Position numbers and translations under genes: made by a program
Assembly (NCBI GenBank): GCA_012690745.1
Contig: GCA_012690745.1_4086.2
Source of the DNA: a phage
Direction: 5' to 3' (one strand)
DNA length: 64,000 bases
The notes under the pieces: model-generated
Told to the model about the DNA's origin: nothing
Seen by the model: only the letters and a program-made list of their open reading frames with translations
The model's database searches: none
Shown here: in pieces, positions 4,146 to 20,346 of the stretch
Layout: the number at the start of each line of letters is the position of its first letter
Position numbering within the stretch: position 1 is the stretch's first letter

Positions 4146-4174
4146 TTGACTTATTTTGTCAGTACTGGCATAAT
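4146..4174 (+). promoter_or_regulatory. promoter (TTGACT/CATAAT class) preceding inverted-repeat element pair
   Basis: -35 TTGACT 4146-4151, 17-nt spacer, -10 CATAAT 4169-4174. Confidence 0.55.
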
Positions 4175-4197
4175 GTATTCATTGGCAGATAAGCCGT

Positions 4198-4272
4198 AGC
4201 CCATAGGGTGCGGGAGTGTATCTATAGAAAAATTAGTTTAGTATAGTTACAATTGTGCACCCGGTGGGTTAG
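4198..4272. repeat. Inverted pair of the cccaYagggtgc element (A copy 4198-4227, inverted B copy 4241-4272)
   Basis: agcccatagggtgcgggagtgtatctatag and inverted gtgcacccggtgggttag; family also at 2104, 2265, 2328, 6333, 10644, 12327, 14679, 17987, 20241. Confidence 0.6.
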
Positions 4273-4364
4273 CTGTTGTCATGGGGTATATTATGCCAGT
4301 ACTTGATAATGCTGTCAATACTTTTTTTTACTATCCAGTACAGAAAACTATTTTTAAAAAGTAC

Positions 4365-4392
4365 TTGCAAACTATGTTTAAAGGCGTATAAT
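4365..4392 (+). promoter_or_regulatory. sigma70-like promoter driving a conserved ~80-nt leader / candidate small RNA (4395-4475)
   Basis: -35 TTGCAA 4365-4370, -10 TATAAT 4387-4392; leader near-identical to 14797-14875. Confidence 0.65.
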
Positions 4393-4394
4393 GT

Positions 4395-4475
4395 TTTACA
4401 TCAGGACGGGGAACGAAATAAGTAACTTCCCGTTAAGTAGCCCAGGAGTAAGGCACACGAAAAACTCCCCTGATA
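4395..4475 (+). ncRNA. candidate small RNA / structured leader (copy 1)
   Basis: Transcribed between two tandem promoters; near-identical copy at 14797-14875, divergent copy at 7262-7330; contains hairpin cgggaa-N13-ttcccg; no ORF. Confidence 0.35.
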
Positions 4476-4482
4476 AAATAGT

Positions 4483-4510
4483 TTGACAAATGTTTTTAAA
4501 AGCGTATAAT
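4483..4510 (+). promoter_or_regulatory. sigma70-like promoter
   Basis: -35 TTGACA 4483-4488, -10 TATAAT 4505-4510. Confidence 0.7.
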
Positions 4511-4542
4511 ACTTACATCAACTACTGAATGAGGGTTATAAA

Positions 4543-5154
4543 ATGAAAACTATCACTACTACTACTTTCGTTATGGATTTTTCTGAATTGAACGCAGAAC
4601 AACAAACGTCAGCTATCGAACTGGTTCGGGAACGTGAAAAAAACTCAAACGACAATTATTTTTCTGAAAGTGAAATTGAATACTATAAAGAAACAGTACT
4701 ACCGGAATATGGCATTAATGACGCTGAAATACAATTCAGTGGTTTTTGGTCCCAGGGTGACGGTGCATCAATCAGTACTGACCACGTTGACGCAGTGAAG
4801 TTTTTACGCAAGGTTAGAGCGTTAACTAAGTATCGCTCAATCCGTCACCTGCTGAATGAAGATGAATTATCTATGAGGGTACAGCGTTCTCAATCCCGCT
4901 ACTCACACGAAAACACTGTAAGCGGGTACATTGAATCGGGGTACACTGATTTAACAGCAAAACAGGAAGCGTTAGCCAATGAGCTTGAGGAATTGCTTAC
5001 TGTTACTATTCGTGAATTATCTCGCAAGTTGTACCGTGATTTAGAGAATGCATATGAGGATCAATTCACTACTGAGAACATCACGGCACTGATCGAGGGT
5101 AACGAGTATCAATTCAATGTTATTGATGGCGTAGTAGAATCAATCGCATATTAA
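4543..5154 (+). CDS. hypothetical protein (203 aa)
   Basis: Track ORF; RBS GAGGG; contains FSGFWSQGDGAS segment; family not identified. Confidence 0.7.
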   Translation: MKTITTTTFVMDFSELNAEQQTSAIELVREREKNSNDNYFSESEIEYYKETVLPEYGINDAEIQFSGFWSQGDGASISTDHVDAVKFLRKVRALTKYRSIRHLLNEDELSMRVQRSQSRYSHENTVSGYIESGYTDLTAKQEALANELEELLTVTIRELSRKLYRDLENAYEDQFTTENITALIEGNEYQFNVIDGVVESIAY

Positions 5155-5209
5155 TTTAGTACTGAGATAATGGCGGGGAATGGTTCCCGCCTTTACTGAG
5201 GAATATCTA

Positions 5210-5497
5210 ATGAGCAAAGTAATTAGCTATACAGTATTAAGCAAGTCATTATCTATTAGCCAGTGCACTGATGGTTATTGGCTTTATGATGAATCGCGTG
5301 GCATGAATTTAGCTATGCGTGCAAAAACTGCTGAGGCGGCGTATCTTGAGGCACTGGAATACTACCAGGAACGATTAAAGGAAGTAGAAAACGATTATAA
5401 TAACCTGAAAGCGAAAGTAGATCATTTCGTCGGGCAATTCGTTGACGATGACGAGGAAGACGGGCACTACTGCGACCGTTGCGGATCTTACAGTTAA
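5210..5497 (+). CDS. hypothetical protein
   Basis: Trimmed from track 5180 to ATG 5210 with RBS GAGGAA; track start lies in hairpin 5173-5192. Confidence 0.6.
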   Translation: MSKVISYTVLSKSLSISQCTDGYWLYDESRGMNLAMRAKTAEAAYLEALEYYQERLKEVENDYNNLKAKVDHFVGQFVDDDEEDGHYCDRCGSYS

Positions 5498-5514
5498 GTA
5501 CTAAGGATTATCTA

Positions 5515-5721
5515 ATGAGTGATTTAATTGAACGTATCAAAGAGCTTGAAGAAAAAGAATTACAGTTAATCGGATTGCGTAATAAAGTTTATTCAGAGCT
5601 TGGAGGCTTCATACAGGCTTGGGATAGTGGTGATCCTGATGCTTTACCTGCTAACCGCCAGGCGATGATCAATGATGTGAGAAGTGTCTTTGATTATGTT
5701 TTAAAAAGTACTGGACACTAA
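5515..5721 (+). CDS. hypothetical protein
   Basis: Trimmed from track 5479 to ATG 5515 (RBS AAGGA); starts just after upstream stop. Confidence 0.55.
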   Translation: MSDLIERIKELEEKELQLIGLRNKVYSELGGFIQAWDSGDPDALPANRQAMINDVRSVFDYVLKSTGH

Positions 5722-5739
5722 GCAATAAAGGCGTATAAT
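5712..5739 (+). promoter_or_regulatory. sigma70-like promoter with 5' hairpin (5751-5772)
   Basis: -35 TGGACA 5712-5717, -10 TATAAT 5734-5739. Confidence 0.6.
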
Positions 5740-5791
5740 ACTTTATATCGAGAGCGGGAATAGTTCCCGCTACTAATGAGGAATACTACAA

Positions 5792-5956
5792 ATGAATACT
5801 TTTACCTTCGCTCAATTGAACGCCCTGGATGTATTGTCTGATGCTTTGCGGGATGCAACTGAAAGCGGTTTATTTGACAATGTTGACATTCACCCTGATG
5901 TAATTAATAATTTTTGTGATGCTATCGCAGAAGTACTGGAAGATCTAAAAAAATAA
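5792..5956 (+). CDS. hypothetical small protein (54 aa; not in ORF track)
   Basis: ATG 5792 after RBS GAGGAA, downstream of promoter and hairpin; stop TAA 5954-5956. Confidence 0.45.
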   Translation: MNTFTFAQLNALDVLSDALRDATESGLFDNVDIHPDVINNFCDAIAEVLEDLKK

Positions 5957-5966
5957 TAGAAAGTAC

Positions 5967-18907: not shown

Positions 18908-18913
18908 AAAGTA

Positions 18914-18941
18914 CTTGCATTGTAGTTAGATTAACGTATAA
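18914..18941 (+). promoter_or_regulatory. sigma70-like promoter with 5' hairpin (18953-18974)
   Basis: -35 TTGCAT 18914-18919, -10 TATAAT 18936-18941. Confidence 0.7.
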
Positions 18942-18994
18942 TGTTTTATATCGAGAGGGGGAAATGGTTTCCCCTCAAGTCCAGGAGATACACC

Positions 18995-19258
18995 ATGAAC
19001 GCTATTGAAATCACTATCAATGCACACGTATACGACAACGTAGTACTGCAAACTACTATGACCGCTAACGATACCAGTACTTTGCGGAATACTGTTATTA
19101 GTGCCGTATGTGCTGCAATCGGTGATGTATCCCTGGAAAATGCAGAACATATCAACAACGGTTTCACTATGTGCAAGCGTGATAACGCAAAACATATCAT
19201 CGTAGAAGGTTACGGCGGTGTAGAATTTAATGTTTATATGAAAAAAGTACTTGCATAA
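18995..19258 (+). CDS. hypothetical protein
   Basis: Trimmed from track 18941 to ATG 18995 (RBS AGGAGA). Confidence 0.55.
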   Translation: MNAIEITINAHVYDNVVLQTTMTANDTSTLRNTVISAVCAAIGDVSLENAEHINNGFTMCKRDNAKHIIVEGYGGVEFNVYMKKVLA

Positions 19259-19278
19259 TAACTAAAACAAAGTATAAT
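19251..19278 (+). promoter_or_regulatory. sigma70-like promoter with 5' hairpin (19289-19307)
   Basis: -35 TTGCAT 19251-19256, -10 TATAAT 19273-19278; hairpin gggggagatatcctccccc. Confidence 0.7.
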
Positions 19279-19325
19279 GTTTTGCATAGGGGGAGATATC
19301 CTCCCCCACTAAAAGGAGTAATAAA

Positions 19326-19550
19326 ATGGCTAACTTTGATGAACTGATGCGGGAAGTAGCTAACCTGGCAGAAGAGAAGAAATCATTCGATTCTATCTAT
19401 AACACCGCTCACCGTGATTCAGTACTGGCATGTACTCAGGATCAAAAAGATGAACTAATCGCCACCTATCATGAAGCATGGAAGTACTACCGACAATGGG
19501 AGAAAGAAGAAAGTGAGTCTACCATTGACGGCCTCAATAATCTAATCTAA
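19326..19550 (+). CDS. hypothetical protein
   Basis: Track ORF; RBS AAGGAG. Confidence 0.55.
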   Translation: MANFDELMREVANLAEEKKSFDSIYNTAHRDSVLACTQDQKDELIATYHEAWKYYRQWEKEESESTIDGLNNLI

Positions 19551-19569
19551 AAGTTTTATTTCAGTACTA

Positions 19570-19598
19570 TTGACATAGCTTGATAGTACTGATGTAAT
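19570..19598 (+). promoter_or_regulatory. sigma70-like promoter (weaker -10)
   Basis: -35 TTGACA 19570-19575, -10 TGTAAT 19593-19598. Confidence 0.5.
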
Positions 19599-19626
19599 AA
19601 CTTTACTAACTACAAGGGGAAACATA

Positions 19627-19884
19627 ATGGAACAGTTCACACAATATCGGGTAAATCCTCAAGCTATGGCCTACGTAGAAGACCATAAAACATTACCAGT
19701 ACAGACACCAATCAAAGGCCGTATCTATCGTGCTATGCAGTGGAATAACGCCTATAATGGCTATAAAGCGGTAGCGGCTGCAATGTACTTAGGGGATGGT
19801 GAATGGTTTGATCCAAATAATCCTGGTGCACTAGATAGTACTGAACAAATGACATGGGCCGACTATATCGAAGATATCTCATAA
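19627..19884 (+). CDS. hypothetical protein
   Basis: Track ORF; RBS AAGGGGAAA. Confidence 0.55.
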   Translation: MEQFTQYRVNPQAMAYVEDHKTLPVQTPIKGRIYRAMQWNNAYNGYKAVAAAMYLGDGEWFDPNNPGALDSTEQMTWADYIEDIS

Positions 19885-19891
19885 AAACTAT

Positions 19892-19919
19892 TTGACAGTA
19901 CTACAAGATAATGTATAAT
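19892..19919 (+). promoter_or_regulatory. sigma70-like promoter with 5' hairpin
   Basis: -35 TTGACA 19892-19897, -10 TATAAT 19914-19919. Confidence 0.75.
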
Positions 19920-19972
19920 GTTTTACATAGAGCGGGGGAATAGTTCTCCCGCACCTTTAGGAGTAAAACATT

Positions 19973-20173
19973 ATGTCAATCGCTAACGAATTGGTTGCAG
20001 TACTGAATGAAGCAAAAGCCAACCGCATCGATGTACAGATCAAAGAGCTTGGCAATGGCTTGATCGGCTGTACTTGTTCCGTGCAAACGGCTACCGATTA
20101 TCGGGAAGTGGAATCACTCGAATCACTGGTACGGTATATTAAAATCCTGGTAGAAGATTGGAGAATCATCTAA
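19973..20173 (+). CDS. hypothetical protein
   Basis: Track ORF; RBS TAGGAG. Confidence 0.5.
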   Translation: MSIANELVAVLNEAKANRIDVQIKELGNGLIGCTCSVQTATDYREVESLESLVRYIKILVEDWRII

Positions 20174-20190
20174 CAAAAAAGAATAAAAAA

Positions 20191-20270
20191 GGGATTGACT
20201 CTGGTCAGTCCCTTTGCTATTATATACGCATAGACAAAAACTAGCCCACAGGGTGCAGAGAAGTATCTGT
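20191..20270 (+). promoter_or_regulatory. Repeated intergenic module copy 4
   Basis: Hairpin gggattgac-tctg-gtcagtccc; -35 TTGACT 20195-20200, -10 TATTAT 20218-20223; element 20241-20270. Confidence 0.55.
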
Positions 20271-20346
20271 AAGATAGTTAATAACGGTGAGTAACTATCT
20301 GCTGGTGGATGTAATTCCAGTACTCAAAACTATTTCAAAAAAAGTA

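Follow-up and report, generated by a model that had tools for sequence, protein, structure and literature searches.

A promoter-linked repeat family in the terminal repeat of an Escherichia coli jumbo phage, with features of immediate-early small or leader RNAs

The direct terminal repeat of an E. coli jumbo phage harbors a family of short repeated units, each joining a promoter to a transcribed element, which we interpret, at about even chances and from sequence comparison, as a family of immediate-early RNAs, small or leader, that is specific to its clade and has an invariant core expected to bind a conserved factor. The window analyzed (64,000 nt at its full length) comprises a terminal repeat of ~20.7 kb (window ~973-21,680) plus flanks, and derives from an Asteriusvirus, a 121Q/PBECO4/G17-like phage. 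The core of the element, CCCAYAGGGTGC, is found in 10 copies matching a covariance model and in one additional degenerate copy (Table 1). With up to two mismatches allowed, the core matches the window 11 times (2.15 expected), and none of 100 shuffles reaches 11; seven of the matches are exact (4200+, 6333-, 10646+, 12331+, 14683+, 17991+ and 20245+).

Table 1. Predicted promoters, hairpins and elements of the repeat family (window positions; bits refer to the covariance model).
Feature	Position	Strand	Details
Unit	2090..2171	-	promoter TTGCTT-N16-TATAAT, 2171 down to 2144
Element of 2090..2171	2139 down to 2090	-	P1 AGTC/GACT; core CCCACCGGGTGC at 2104-2115; 43.6 bits
Degenerate copy	2260..2296	+	TACCTGCTAGGGTGCGGGAGTGTATCC then T7; repeat family, 65%; missed by covariance model
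Unit facing degenerate copy 2264	2306..2387	-	promoter TTGACT...TATAAT, 2387 down to 2359
Element of 2306..2387	2355 down to 2306	-	core CCCAGAGGGTGC at 2320-2331; 17.7 bits, E 0.019
Left member, convergent pair	4146..4225	+	promoter TTGACT (4146-4151)-N17-CATAAT (4169-4174)
Element, class I	4177-4225	+	core 4200-4211; 47.9 bits
Right member, convergent pair	4243..4318	-	promoter TTGACA...CATAAT, 4318 down to 4290
Element, class II	4281 down to 4243	-	core CCCACCGGGTGC at 4257-4268; 28.4 bits
Stand-alone antisense unit	6262..6401	-	promoter TTGACA...CATAAT, 6401 down to 6373
Element of 6262..6401	6368 down to 6319	-	core 6333-6344; 39.3 bits
GC hairpin then U-rich tail of 6262..6401	6272-6292	-	predicted RNA ~110 nt
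Terminator hairpin, preceding operon	10584..10611	+	stop at 10582; -15.9 kcal/mol, z -6.0; 12 pairs
-35 hexamer TTGACT in 5' arm of 10584..10611	10591-10596	+	
Sigma-70 promoter	10591..10619	+	TTGACT-N17-TATTAT, TG extended -10
Element, class I	10622..10671	+	63.4 bits, E 8e-16; P1 TGAG/CTCA; core CCCACAGGGTGC at 10646-10657, then TATCTAT
Unit, copy absent from phage G17	12274..12356	+	promoter TTGACA-N17-CATAAT (12274-12302)
Element, class I	12308-12356	+	P1 GACG/CGTC; core 12331-12342; 40 bits
Terminator hairpin unit	14626..14661	+	hairpin 14626-14653; -19.5 kcal/mol; preceding stop codon 14614
Embedded promoter, inside 14626..14661	14633-14661	+	TTGACT-N17-TATTAT
Element, class II	14664..14708	+	short A-rich 5' segment; core 14683-14694; 44.5 bits
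Terminator hairpin unit	17929..17964	+	hairpin 17929-17956; -18.5 kcal/mol; preceding stop codon 17917
Embedded promoter, overlapping 17929-17956	17936-17964	+	
Element, class I	17967..18016	+	core 17991-18002; 62.7 bits
Terminator hairpin unit	20188..20223	+	hairpin 20188-20215; -17.6 kcal/mol; preceding stop codon 20173
Embedded promoter, overlapping 20188-20215	20195-20223	+	
Element, class II	20232..20270	+	core 20245-20256; 33.4 bits

All copies in the window lie between 2,090 and 20,270, inside the terminal repeat, and a covariance model scan with filters off returned 10 copies, all of them at 2090-20270, the stretch at 20.3-64 kb being free of any. The module family described in the original prediction is real; its confinement to the direct terminal repeat had been missed. 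Exact-match scans of the complete 121Q genome place core matches only at the two element-bearing loci, and the element is unannotated in the phage records inspected. The terminal-repeat copies adjoin an array of 17 8-bp repeats. Every module and element coordinate previously given holds on re-inspection, although the list of copies left out 2320(-) and the degenerate 2264(+). The four modules earlier called near-identical are similar within two pairs, 10588/17932 (86% identity) and 14629/20191 (84%), but share only ~61% identity between pairs, the difference residing in the 5' transcribed segment. The statement that no open reading frame follows the modules is essentially right: a single 41-codon frame (10579-10704) overlaps one module and has no counterpart in the others. 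The distance from -10 hexamer to core (20-31 nt) differs by amounts not divisible by three, so that no reading frame is kept across copies.

Each copy in the window, inverted ones included, has its own sigma-70 -10 hexamer 20-31 nt upstream in matching orientation. The inverted elements noticed earlier do exist, but each carries its own same-orientation upstream promoter, from which it follows that the unit is promoter plus element rather than the element alone; it had been overlooked that the inverted copies are predicted to form transcription units of their own, convergent or antisense. A promoter scoring 9/12 or more, at the right distance and on the right strand, accompanies 96% of 103 distinct copies and 5% of random positions drawn from the same loci; at a threshold of at least 10/12 the figures are 83% and 1.7%. 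These promoters are near-consensus sigma-70 sequences, often with a TG extended -10 and an upstream A-tract. Promoter type varies among copies (hairpin/TATTAT, CAGTACTGGCATAAT, TATAAT, TATACT), and the distance to the core is kept.

In four modules the -35 hexamer of a TTGACT-N17-TATTAT promoter lies inside a 12-bp hairpin that starts 2-15 nt past a stop codon. The hairpins use G-U pairs and are more stable on the gene strand (-15.9 to -19.5 kcal/mol) than on the other (-6.4 to -13.2 kcal/mol). In these four gene-direction copies the promoter would be fused to the intrinsic terminator that closes the upstream operon: the 5' stem arm holds the -35 hexamer, and the U-tract supplies the TG of the extended -10. 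The embedded-promoter hairpin is present in all four main modules, as originally described, but in only 4 of the 11 copies overall. A combined terminator and restart site, one of the three functions originally offered, is supported in silico for the hairpin modules; it accounts for those 4 of 11 copies only and leaves the CCCAYAGGGTGC element unexplained.

For the transcribed segment, the comparison took in 99-103 distinct copies, drawn from RaK2-like phages that infect eight host genera. At the predicted RNA 5' end, 1-4 nt past the predicted start site, lies a hairpin of 3-5 bp (P1) with compensatory changes at 4/4 pairs; at one of them we count CG 36, AU 23, GC 19 and UA 1, with none unpaired. 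P1 is paired in 93.7%, its stem sequence being free to vary (more than 25 different complementary sequences) as long as complementarity is kept, and G-U pairs also occur in it. The whole-structure covariation score is 0.437 versus 0.132 for shuffled sets, none of 500 of which reach it, and at most 0.065 for slid partners; an alignment-free check of the class I 5' segments points the same way, 64 of 79 exceeding 95% of their own shuffled versions in stability. The P1 loop is purine-rich (GCGAAA, GAGAAA or AGAUAA). In 20 of 99 copies P1 is replaced by an A-rich stretch without structure. Next comes a short CUA linker, which leads to the invariant block R-CCC-(AYA)-GGG-U-GC, within which the core can form a 4-bp mini-hairpin (P2) with a fixed CCC/GGG stem and a loop variable in sequence and length (ACA 44, AUA 32, UAUA 8, plus ACC, AGA and others). 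P2 has a mean predicted pairing probability of 0.66 and a compensatory C-G to U-A change in three sequences, and the core otherwise shows almost no covariation. Downstream come a purine-rich pentamer and U-N-Y-R-UCUAU, of which UCUAU is conserved. An alternative helix (P3, GGGUGCR with UNYRUCU) is pairable in 88%, with one-sided changes only.

The invariance of the core would be expected of a DNA site no less than of an RNA site. On the DNA reading the inverted CCC-N3/4-GGG followed by TGC...TCTAT would be bound, as double-stranded DNA or as single strands exposed by transcription, by a host or phage protein, either a repressor or roadblock at ~+25 to +37 of these promoters or a recombination or replication protein of the terminal repeat. 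Invariance of the core at 12/12 positions across genera without covariation agrees with this, as do the confinement of the family to the terminal repeat of this window and the convergent pairs, which form long inverted repeats with operator-like fixed spacing and in some relatives enclose a central AATGATAATCATT palindrome. A pure DNA site nevertheless explains neither the near-universal promoter at fixed distance and matching orientation nor the covarying hairpin at the transcription start and the strand-specific G-U pairs, and single copies in either orientation are commoner than pairs, all of which makes this reading rather improbable. As a protein-binding site, the third function originally offered, the core is recognition-like, and RNA is a more probable form for it than double-stranded DNA.

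The original prediction proposed looking for the element in related phages, and 68 phage records do contain it, from Escherichia, Klebsiella, Salmonella, Erwinia, Yersinia, Cronobacter, Pectobacterium and Serratia hosts; the Rfam scan also proposed there gave no match to the element. The covariance model finds 111 matches in 277 kb of related loci. Searches of bacterial genomes and of the literature returned no match to the element, E. coli genomes hold no extended match to the core, and, in the window, the only complements of the core with up to two mismatches are the element copies themselves. The best reading is that the family is specific to the RaK2-like clade. In that clade one third of all copies occur in convergent pairs with fixed spacings of 31, 42 or 49 nt (45 nt between cores for the 4146..4225(+)/4243..4318(-) pair of the window), and in relatives many of the antisense copies are closed by strong terminators.

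Conservation of this kind could also stem from concerted evolution rather than from selection on an RNA, if the units were PeSL-like regulatory cassettes without function of their own, spreading and being homogenized through recombination among copies. Insertion/deletion breakpoints among this phage, G17 and 121Q do coincide with repeated promoter cassettes, one of them (12270/12588) removing the 12331 copy, and homology to several relatives begins at module borders (query 1571 and 5614, equivalent to window 10571 and 14614). Same-position copies in different phages, moreover, carry different 5' segment variants: window 14683 has atatgcatagaaacaatctaa, and the 121Q copy has atacgcatagacaaaaactag, resembling window 20245. 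We nonetheless give this explanation little credence. The core is identical even between phages in which the flanking genes have just 30-50% amino-acid identity or nothing in common, and promoter type, P1 sequence and flanks have diverged while it stayed the same, a pattern of purifying selection rather than of recent copying; the compensatory changes in P1, in turn, require selection on pairing.

Under the small or leader RNA reading that we favor, each copy would be a small independent transcription unit within the early, host-takeover region of the terminal repeat, starting at the A of a conserved CA and yielding an abundant immediate-early non-coding RNA. P1 might serve as a 5' protective clamp, and the invariant P2 block would be the functional part, most likely working in trans as the site for one conserved host or phage protein. 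We infer transcription, 3' ends, trans action and protein binding alike for the element RNA. With a terminator downstream, as in the discrete unit at 6333(-) with its GC hairpin and U-rich tail, the product would be a discrete small RNA; with none, it would be a leader RNA. Five of the 11 copies run in gene direction with no obvious terminator ahead of the next promoter, which suggests a leader rather than a discrete small RNA. Of the three functions originally listed, a short RNA is the one that indirect evidence favors most, on account of promoter placement, covarying P1 and the terminators that follow some copies.

The main rival is that the element acts in cis as a processivity or antitermination leader like lambda nut, HK022 put or ops/RfaH, the polymerase being modified by nascent RNA or a recruited factor to read through the hairpin terminators of the terminal repeat into >40 kb of packed same-strand genes. 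Five successive copies do point into the 21.7-64 kb part of the window, where genes overlap or abut and promoter-like sites are at background density. The element is always promoter-proximal (~+25 to +50), as are nut, put and ops; the GNRA-like purine loops of P1 recall boxB, and an invariant linear block comes after P1 as in rrn boxB-boxA; and the hairpin modules are located exactly at terminators. We still regard cis-acting antitermination as unlikely. About 40% of window copies are directed against genes or at the genome end (the 2090..2171(-) unit faces the physical end, ~1.1 kb off), one third of all copies sit in the convergent pairs, and several antisense copies have a terminator right behind them and no gene. 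P1 is absent from a fifth of copies (20/99), and its loops vary more than a boxB-type specific contact would allow. Neither boxA nor ops is seen near the elements, tblastn detects no NusG/RfaH homologue in RaK2-like phages, and each operon has its own promoter ~100 nt downstream.

Replication-origin or R-loop primer units like T4 oriF/oriG, with a transcript that stays hybridized in a downstream AT-rich unwinding element and primes leading-strand synthesis, would match the succession of promoter, structured RNA and AT-rich stretch, as well as the location in the terminal repeat beside the 8-bp array and the placement of this phage in a lineage whose portal and late-transcription genes are T4-like (PMC5259590). 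This is highly improbable: ten or more origins within 20 kb are implausible, convergent promoters would overwind the spacer rather than open it, T4 origins share no conserved transcribed motif, and the invariant core is left unexplained.

Among known systems, lambda nut (boxA+boxB, N), rrn boxB-boxA-boxC and HK022 put resemble the element in being promoter-proximal RNA with a small hairpin, a purine-rich GNRA-like loop and a conserved linear block, upstream of terminators in phage early transcription units. The element differs from them in having no boxA consensus, a hairpin whose loop is not fixed and which is missing in 20%, and many copies that either point away from genes or are directed at one another; it also has no identified N-like or Nus-recruiting factor. 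Like ops/RfaH, it is a 12-nt promoter-proximal sequence that ends in TG and allows a tiny non-template hairpin, and the variant CCCA-TAGGGTG agrees with the 3' half of ops (GGCGGTAGCGTG), TAGCGTG, at 6/7 positions. The host range of the phage clade falls within the Enterobacterales, the order of E. coli, in which ops and RfaH were characterized. The GGCGG half of ops, which RfaH reads, is however absent from the element, and the first 22 kb gave no match to ops with up to two mismatches, nor was a phage NusG/RfaH paralogue found.

Sibling small-RNA families and multi-copy phage RNAs such as RNA anti-CRISPRs, which are solitary repeat units, likewise comprise several paralogous short non-coding units per genome, each with its own promoter and with an invariant block amid variable sequence; unlike those units, about half of the element copies have no terminator. 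We know of no similarity of the element to enterobacterial type I-E or I-F CRISPR repeats. A precedent for the small RNA reading comes from the Pseudomonas jumbo phage PA5oct, a distant relative of the RaK2-like group, whose terminal repeat encodes two highly abundant non-coding RNAs, ncRNA001 and ncRNA002, both experimentally shown and amounting to 2-5% of phage reads (PMC7318152). They share with the element their non-coding nature and their setting in a long terminal repeat. Unlike the elements, they are single-copy RNAs of 236 and 451 nt without recognized promoters, and with no likeness in sequence or structure (covariance model at most 7.7 bits) they are not homologous.

The hairpin with an embedded -35 hexamer is itself a known design, that of the PeSL-type composite terminator/promoter of T4-type phages. 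PeSLs are promoter-early stem-loops found in the T4-type phages RB49, phi1, PST and nt-1 (Arbiol et al. 2010, PMC2839356; Comeau et al. 2014, PMC4122927), and in one subclass the stem-loop overlaps the -35 box (PMC2839356), just as in our four hairpin modules. Like PeSLs, these modules join a stem-loop that terminates transcription from upstream to a strong sigma-70-like early promoter with an AT-rich upstream region, and PeSLs and elements alike are dense among small ORFan early genes and coincide with insertion/deletion breakpoints between related phages. The hosts of the element, however, are RaK2-like jumbo phages, not strict T4-type, and only 4 of its 11 copies follow the hairpin design; PeSLs, for their part, are without a conserved transcribed element, whereas here an invariant structured block lies 3' of the promoter.

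Megablast searches of window positions 9000-21000 against the phage collection matched 110 records, with Escherichia phage JP4 as best match (coverage 100%, identity 91.4%), followed by phAPEC6, G17, 121Q, PBECO4 and others, placing the window among the RaK2-like jumbo phages of Asteriusvirus (about 350-385 kb). Window position 973 aligns with position 1 of phage fEgEco12, for which PhageTerm, with confirmation by restriction digests, established the termini and a direct terminal repeat (DTR) of 20,993 bp (PMC13070987), and positions about 21,675-21,680 correspond both to the end of the fEgEco12 repeat and to position 1 of the G17 record. 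The left repeat copy of G17 starts at position 1 and the right copy at 350,150, and this offset of 350,149 bp yields a repeat of about 20.7 kb. The boundary alignments thus divide the window into 972 bp of unique sequence, the entire terminal repeat (about 973-21,680) and 42 kb of unique sequence. The interior of the terminal repeat contains small plus-strand ORFs, with dense near-consensus sigma-70 promoters and stem-loops between them, and this promoter-dense, small-ORF region has the same extent as the terminal repeat; past it, plus-strand genes overlap or abut. Several of the small ORFs are kept across phages of E. coli, Yersinia and Pectobacterium and have no family match. RaK2-like phages (roughly 350 kb), including 121Q, PBECO4, RaK2, K64-1, GAP32, CBB and the Yersinia, Erwinia and Serratia Eneladusviruses, have been isolated widely for use in therapy and biocontrol, and their early programme is essentially unannotated.

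The repetition of a core within this region is real: CCCAYAGGGTGC has 11 matches in the window with at most 2 mismatches, against 2.15 expected, and none of 100 shuffles reaches 11. The original prediction had described this core in both orientations, downstream of a hairpin with an embedded promoter, and all of its coordinates were correct. In copies 10588, 14629, 17932 and 20191, TTGACT does lie in the 5' arm of a 12-bp hairpin, with TATTAT 17 nt on. These four modules had been called near-identical; they instead form two pairs at 84-86% identity, with only about 61% identity across pairs. The hairpin, taken to be part of the module, is present in these 4 of the 11 copies; the other seven have none. 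Two further copies were found, an inverted one at 2320 and a degenerate one at 2264, facing it. Every window copy, in both orientations, has its own upstream promoter on its own strand; the repeated unit is therefore a promoter plus a transcribed element, and the hairpin an optional extra.

To collect further copies, a viral contig collection was scanned for exact core-containing patterns and annotated relatives were fetched, providing loci from RaK2, 121Q, GAP32, CBB, Serratia phage BF, Yersinia phage fHe-Yen9-03, G17 and several uncultured contigs (355-366 kb). Core matches on small or GC-rich contigs were taken as chance, since they had no promoter and lay in seemingly ordinary sequence. 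A covariance model trained on 14 copies of uniform geometry and run with filters off detected 10 window copies, all within 2,090-20,270 and none in the other 43.7 kb, so that within the window the element is restricted to the terminal repeat. The same model recovered 111 copies in 277 kb of related loci, and the search of related phages proposed for the element was thereby positive. In the resulting consensus, the promoter has a TTGACA or TTGACT -35 hexamer, separated by 16-18 nt (17 in 72 copies) from a -10 of TATTAT, CATAAT, TATAAT or TATACT, followed after about 5 nt by CA, the predicted start. There follow P1, a 5' hairpin of 3-5 bp with a purine-rich loop, a CUA linker, R-CCC-loop-GGG-U (the mini-hairpin P2), GC, five mostly purine bases and U-N-Y-R-U-C-U-A-U. 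Conservation declines 3' of this last block, and AGTACT usually occurs within 8-12 nt.

The AGTACT palindrome is itself a feature of the window at large, with 255 occurrences against 21 expected. It lies within the early promoter consensus (AAAAAGTACTTGCA ... CAGTACTGTATAAT) and, all through 36-64 kb, in coding regions as well; 32-36 kb contains none. Hairpins can form between two copies, and the excess is genome-wide. Chi is strongly enriched in the terminal repeat (1550-20308), against 0.22 sites per strand expected in 64 kb. The sites at 1550 and 1562 lie back to back, those at 14714 and 20301 lie just after elements, and Chi also occurs inside the promoter spacers of related copies. Under the Chi orientation rule, both genome ends (about 973 and about 21,680) appear guarded against RecBCD by correctly oriented sites. 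A tandem array of CTAGACGG lies in the 1.7 kb of non-coding sequence that separates the physical genome end (about 973) from the first gene (2690), and may serve as a signal of iteron-like, packaging or ejection-related type. A direct repeat, GATTCAGTACTGAATAATAGTACTCCTATATAGAAAGA, sits immediately upstream of the terminal repeat's first early promoter.

Element RNA sequence, and coordinates of conserved genes and sequence features, in the terminal repeat, its flanks and related loci
Feature	Coordinates	Details
Sequence in element RNA		GCACCCUGUGGG
ParE-like toxin domain, early gene in terminal repeat	16472-16726	PF24732, E 3e-10
DksA/TraR C4 zinc finger, early gene in terminal repeat	12599-12856	PF01258, E 2e-11
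Small ORF, no family match	9100-9369	most conserved
Small ORFs, no family match	4543-5154; 10803-11144	likewise conserved
Chi, GCTGGTGG, plus strand	1562; 7980; 11988; 13449; 14714; 17097; 18504; 20301	
Chi, CCACCAGC	1550; 7918; also 60147	
AGTACT palindrome, also within CAGTACTG	e.g. 894; 2078; 36912; 58110	CAGTACTG: 56 in window, 0.6 expected
Tandem array of 8-bp unit CTAGACGG	1755-1921	about 17 copies, 48-bp super-period
Direct repeat GATTCAGTACTGAATAATAGTACTCCTATATAGAAAGA	within 2540-2640	two copies
Rfam Trp_leader, weak matches	7836-7900; 7090-7175	29.9 bits; 25.1 bits (gathering score 41)
Palindrome AATGATAATCATT at related loci	L001, about 8075-8110; L005, about 1275-1310; L036, about 26160-26185; L030, about 6100	variants AATGAGAATCATT, AATGATTCTCATT
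11-bp hairpin GCAUUGUACUU/AAGUAUAAUGU	18060-18095; 14772-14800	followed by UUUA/UUUU
Breakpoints versus G17/121Q on gene-proximal cassettes	5705/5960; 12873/13306; 13544/13894; 14920/15134	
Breakpoint versus G17/121Q on element cassette	12270/12588	copy 12331 missing in G17

Association with a promoter is close to universal among the copies collected. At the proper distance and on the proper strand, a promoter with a score of 9 of 12 or more precedes 96% of 103 distinct copies, compared to 5% of random positions in the same AT-rich loci, and raising the threshold to 10 of 12 gives 83% and 1.7%. These promoters are of several types, indicating that element and promoter are retained together while the promoter sequence itself is not conserved. 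The P1 helix shows both-sided changes at all four modelled pairs, with 93.7% pairing overall; one pair occurs as CG in 36 copies, AU in 23, GC in 19 and UA in 1, and is never unpaired. The covariation score of the whole structure (0.437) exceeds that of shuffles (0.132; 0/500 reach the observed value), and falls to 0.065 or less when partners are slid by 1-3 columns. Since the alignment had been fitted to the model, an alignment-free check was added, in which the 5' segments of the 79 copies with P1 (class I) average -3.8 kcal/mol, versus a shuffled mean of -0.74, with 64 of the 79 surpassing 95% of their own shuffles in stability. In the class II copies (20 of 99), an A-rich unstructured segment replaces the stable hairpin.

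The arms of P2, CCC and GGG, are fixed, and the intervening bases differ in sequence and length (ACA, AUA, UAUA, ACC, AGA, AUUA and others); its inner pair changes from C-G to U-A in three sequences, and RNAalifold predicts P2 from an ungapped alignment. The mean predicted pairing probability of P2 is 0.66. An alternative helix, P3, would pair GGGUGCR with UNYRUCU and cannot coexist with P2, because both use the GGG bases. P3 is 88% pairable, versus 30-57% when slid, and neatly explains the strict Y-R at two positions; its changes are one-sided only, and it is predicted to be dominant in 11 of 91 copies. Some minimum-free-energy folds show a long-range pairing of the P1 3' strand with the purine pentamer (the AGAUA loop with UAUCU); it is not general, as copies with GACG/CGUC and GCCA/UGGC cannot form it. 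The promoter association, the covariation of P1 and the hairpin-like behavior of P2 argue for a transcribed, folded RNA beyond a DNA repeat. The reading of the repeats as a DNA-level site is improbable, and that of an origin or R-loop unit still more so.

The element matches no known RNA family. The Rfam comparison recommended in the original prediction gave no gathering-score match to Rfam 15 anywhere in the 64 kb, and at E values up to 5 over positions 1-22000 there were three unrelated weak matches, none at an element; the Trp_leader matches among weak Rfam hits are probably due to chance. No tRNA, tmRNA or known RNA family was found for the element, and a small peptide gene was rejected, the ORF at 10579-10704 being unconserved and length variation among copies breaking the reading frame. 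There is likewise no homology with the two abundant terminal-repeat ncRNAs of PA5oct. The full motif has no match in 185,579 species-representative bacterial and archaeal genomes, and a search of 5,426 genomes of E. coli for a host copy or mimic gave none at E values up to 10. Complements of the core with at most 2 mismatches, sought in the window as base-pairing targets, comprise only the element copies themselves and a two-mismatch occurrence at 57706, probably a chance match; in the complete 121Q genome, exact-match scans returned the two element-bearing loci alone. Searches of the literature located no paper containing the motif string, nor any transcriptome of an Asteriusvirus or other RaK2-like phage. 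The CBB genome paper reports RpoD-like, TGAAACG-type and ATAAATA-type promoters and 74 terminators, and does not describe the element. The CCCAYAGGGUGC unit has no known-family match and is unannotated in the records inspected. Its candidacy as a new family of phage RNA is well supported. Likenesses to pistol and other small ribozymes, the preQ1-I tail, the 11-nt GAAA receptor, CsrA GGA sites, MazF ACA sites and type I-E/I-F CRISPR repeats were considered and dropped.

The predicted extent of the transcripts differs among copies. The minus-strand copy at 6333 is a complete small unit, with promoter, element and a GC hairpin with U-rich tail that it has in common with a converging plus-strand gene, for a predicted RNA of about 110 nt, and many antisense copies in relatives end likewise in a GC hairpin and U-rich tail. 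In the five window copies codirectional with genes, there is no clear terminator before the promoter of the next gene, about 100 nt downstream. Some copies thus have the look of discrete small RNAs, and others that of leaders. No copy contains a conserved ORF, and under a strict test a terminator lies within 90 nt in 15 of 105 copies; among those without one nearby, 33 of the 105 face a convergent partner and 55 have neither. The spacing in these convergent pairs, from element end to partner core, is fixed at 31, 42 or 49 nt. Pairs with 42- and 49-nt spacing in relatives carry a central palindrome, AATGATAATCATT, absent from the window, which may serve as an operator or as a bidirectional terminator shared by the pair, the latter role being conceivable for the 49-nt class in particular. 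The palindrome matches the central 13 bases of the Fur-box consensus.

We propose that the elements are immediate-early, sigma-70-driven non-coding transcription units. Their product would be a short structured RNA with P1 as a 5' clamp, in agreement with the habit of this phage, whose gene promoters, too, have ACAU and a 5' stem-loop after them (repeat family D1). The invariant P2 block would be the working part, most probably the recognition site of one conserved protein, and would act in trans, in which case orientation would be irrelevant and multi-copy expression from the terminal repeat would make sense. To this mechanism as a whole, predicted from comparative analysis, we assign an even chance. 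A scan of ten conserved terminal-repeat proteins for partner candidates identified only the ParE-like and DksA/TraR domains, and no RNA-binding domain.

The main rival is a cis-acting processivity signal of the nut, put or ops kind, which would fit the promoter-proximal position of the element, its loops, similar to boxB, and the downstream 40 kb of genes with few promoters. Copies in antisense or convergent arrangement, together with those lacking P1, speak against it, as does the absence of the expected companions: boxA (CGCUCUUA or UGCUCUUUAACAA) has no exact match, and its matches with at most 1 mismatch are not at elements; ops (GGCGGTAGnnTG) has no match with at most 2 mismatches in 1-22000; and tblastn with RfaH as query finds no RaK2-like phage carrying a NusG/RfaH paralogue. 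Nor is there a fixed GNRA-like pentaloop in every site, as the P1 loops vary (GCGAAA in 20 copies, GAGAAA in 17, AGAUAA in 9, and more than 20 other sequences) and 20 of 99 copies have no stable hairpin. We deem a processivity signal unlikely. The core was also considered as an activator box at -30 of a middle promoter with TATNNT as -10, and this reading was rejected because the would-be -10 has a T at the sixth position in just 52% of copies and the geometry would be absurd for convergent pairs and for copies soon followed by a terminator.

Extending the trans-acting, non-coding RNA reading, we speculate that RaK2-like phages may carry 10-20 copies of a dedicated immediate-early RNA gene in the terminal repeat at both ends, the invariant hairpin serving as a decoy for a single conserved factor, enterobacterial or phage, or recruiting it, and host takeover or defence evasion thus being effected by a multi-copy ncRNA rather than a protein. 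This scenario is tentative and somewhat doubtful; if true, it would define a new class of phage RNA. Independently of it, a conserved, testable non-coding unit is defined in the terminal repeat, at about 10 copies per repeat and about 20 per packaged genome, and the covariance model provides an annotation marker for this early region. Were the RNA produced in line with the prediction, it would rank with the most abundant phage products of the early phase and be an entry point to the takeover of Enterobacterales by RaK2-like phages.

The hairpin of the four modules invites comparison with the promoter-early stem-loops (PeSL) of T4-type phages (PMC2839356). On the plus-strand RNA, the four hairpins have 12 bp, energies of -15.9 to -19.5 kcal/mol, z-scores of -5.3 to -6.8 and a U-rich tail, and begin 2-15 nt past the stop codons at 10582, 14614, 17917 and 20173. 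The opposite strand of the two hairpins tested folds much more weakly (-6.4 and -13.2 kcal/mol), as G-U pairs turn into C-A mismatches. A simple scan lists all four as terminator-like, their G17 counterparts are annotated as ARNOLD terminators, and with the tail UUUGCUAUUAU they are predicted to be intrinsic (Rho-independent) terminators. An 11-bp hairpin located between the -35 and -10 of the next gene promoters, downstream of copies 17932 and 14629, represents another PeSL subclass and is a possible terminator of the element transcript. The hairpin version of the element occurs only in gene-codirectional copies, in the window and in the Yersinia phage, which fits an element fused with the terminator of the upstream operon.

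The likeness to PeSL extends to promoter, stem-loop and location. The early promoter is TTGACT-N17-TATTAT with a TG, contributed to the extended -10 by the U-tract (UUUGC) of the hairpin, and with A6-7 upstream, and the 12-bp hairpin is predicted in silico to terminate upstream transcription in all four modules. PeSL are located in hyperplastic ORFan regions and at indel junctions of close relatives; here likewise, comparison of this phage with G17 and 121Q places insertion/deletion breakpoints on repeated promoter cassettes, including one that bears an element. These breakpoints bear on the possibility that the elements are recombination cassettes with no function of their own, to which, set beside the covariation of P1, we accord a slim chance. 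More than 30 gene-proximal cassettes, in repeat families D1-D10 (2646-20863), have the layout A-rich upstream sequence, AGTACTTGCA or TTGACA, N16-17, (TG)TATAAT, ACAUC, a GC-rich 5' hairpin (GGGGAGAAnnGUUCUCCCC), ribosome-binding site and ATG, and the indels on them amount to PeSL-like modular shuffling in a jumbo phage. The hairpin-plus-promoter part of the module is thus of a known kind, here in a new phage lineage, and PeSL-type terminator/promoter cassettes and their modular shuffling extend past the T4-type phages to a jumbo lineage.
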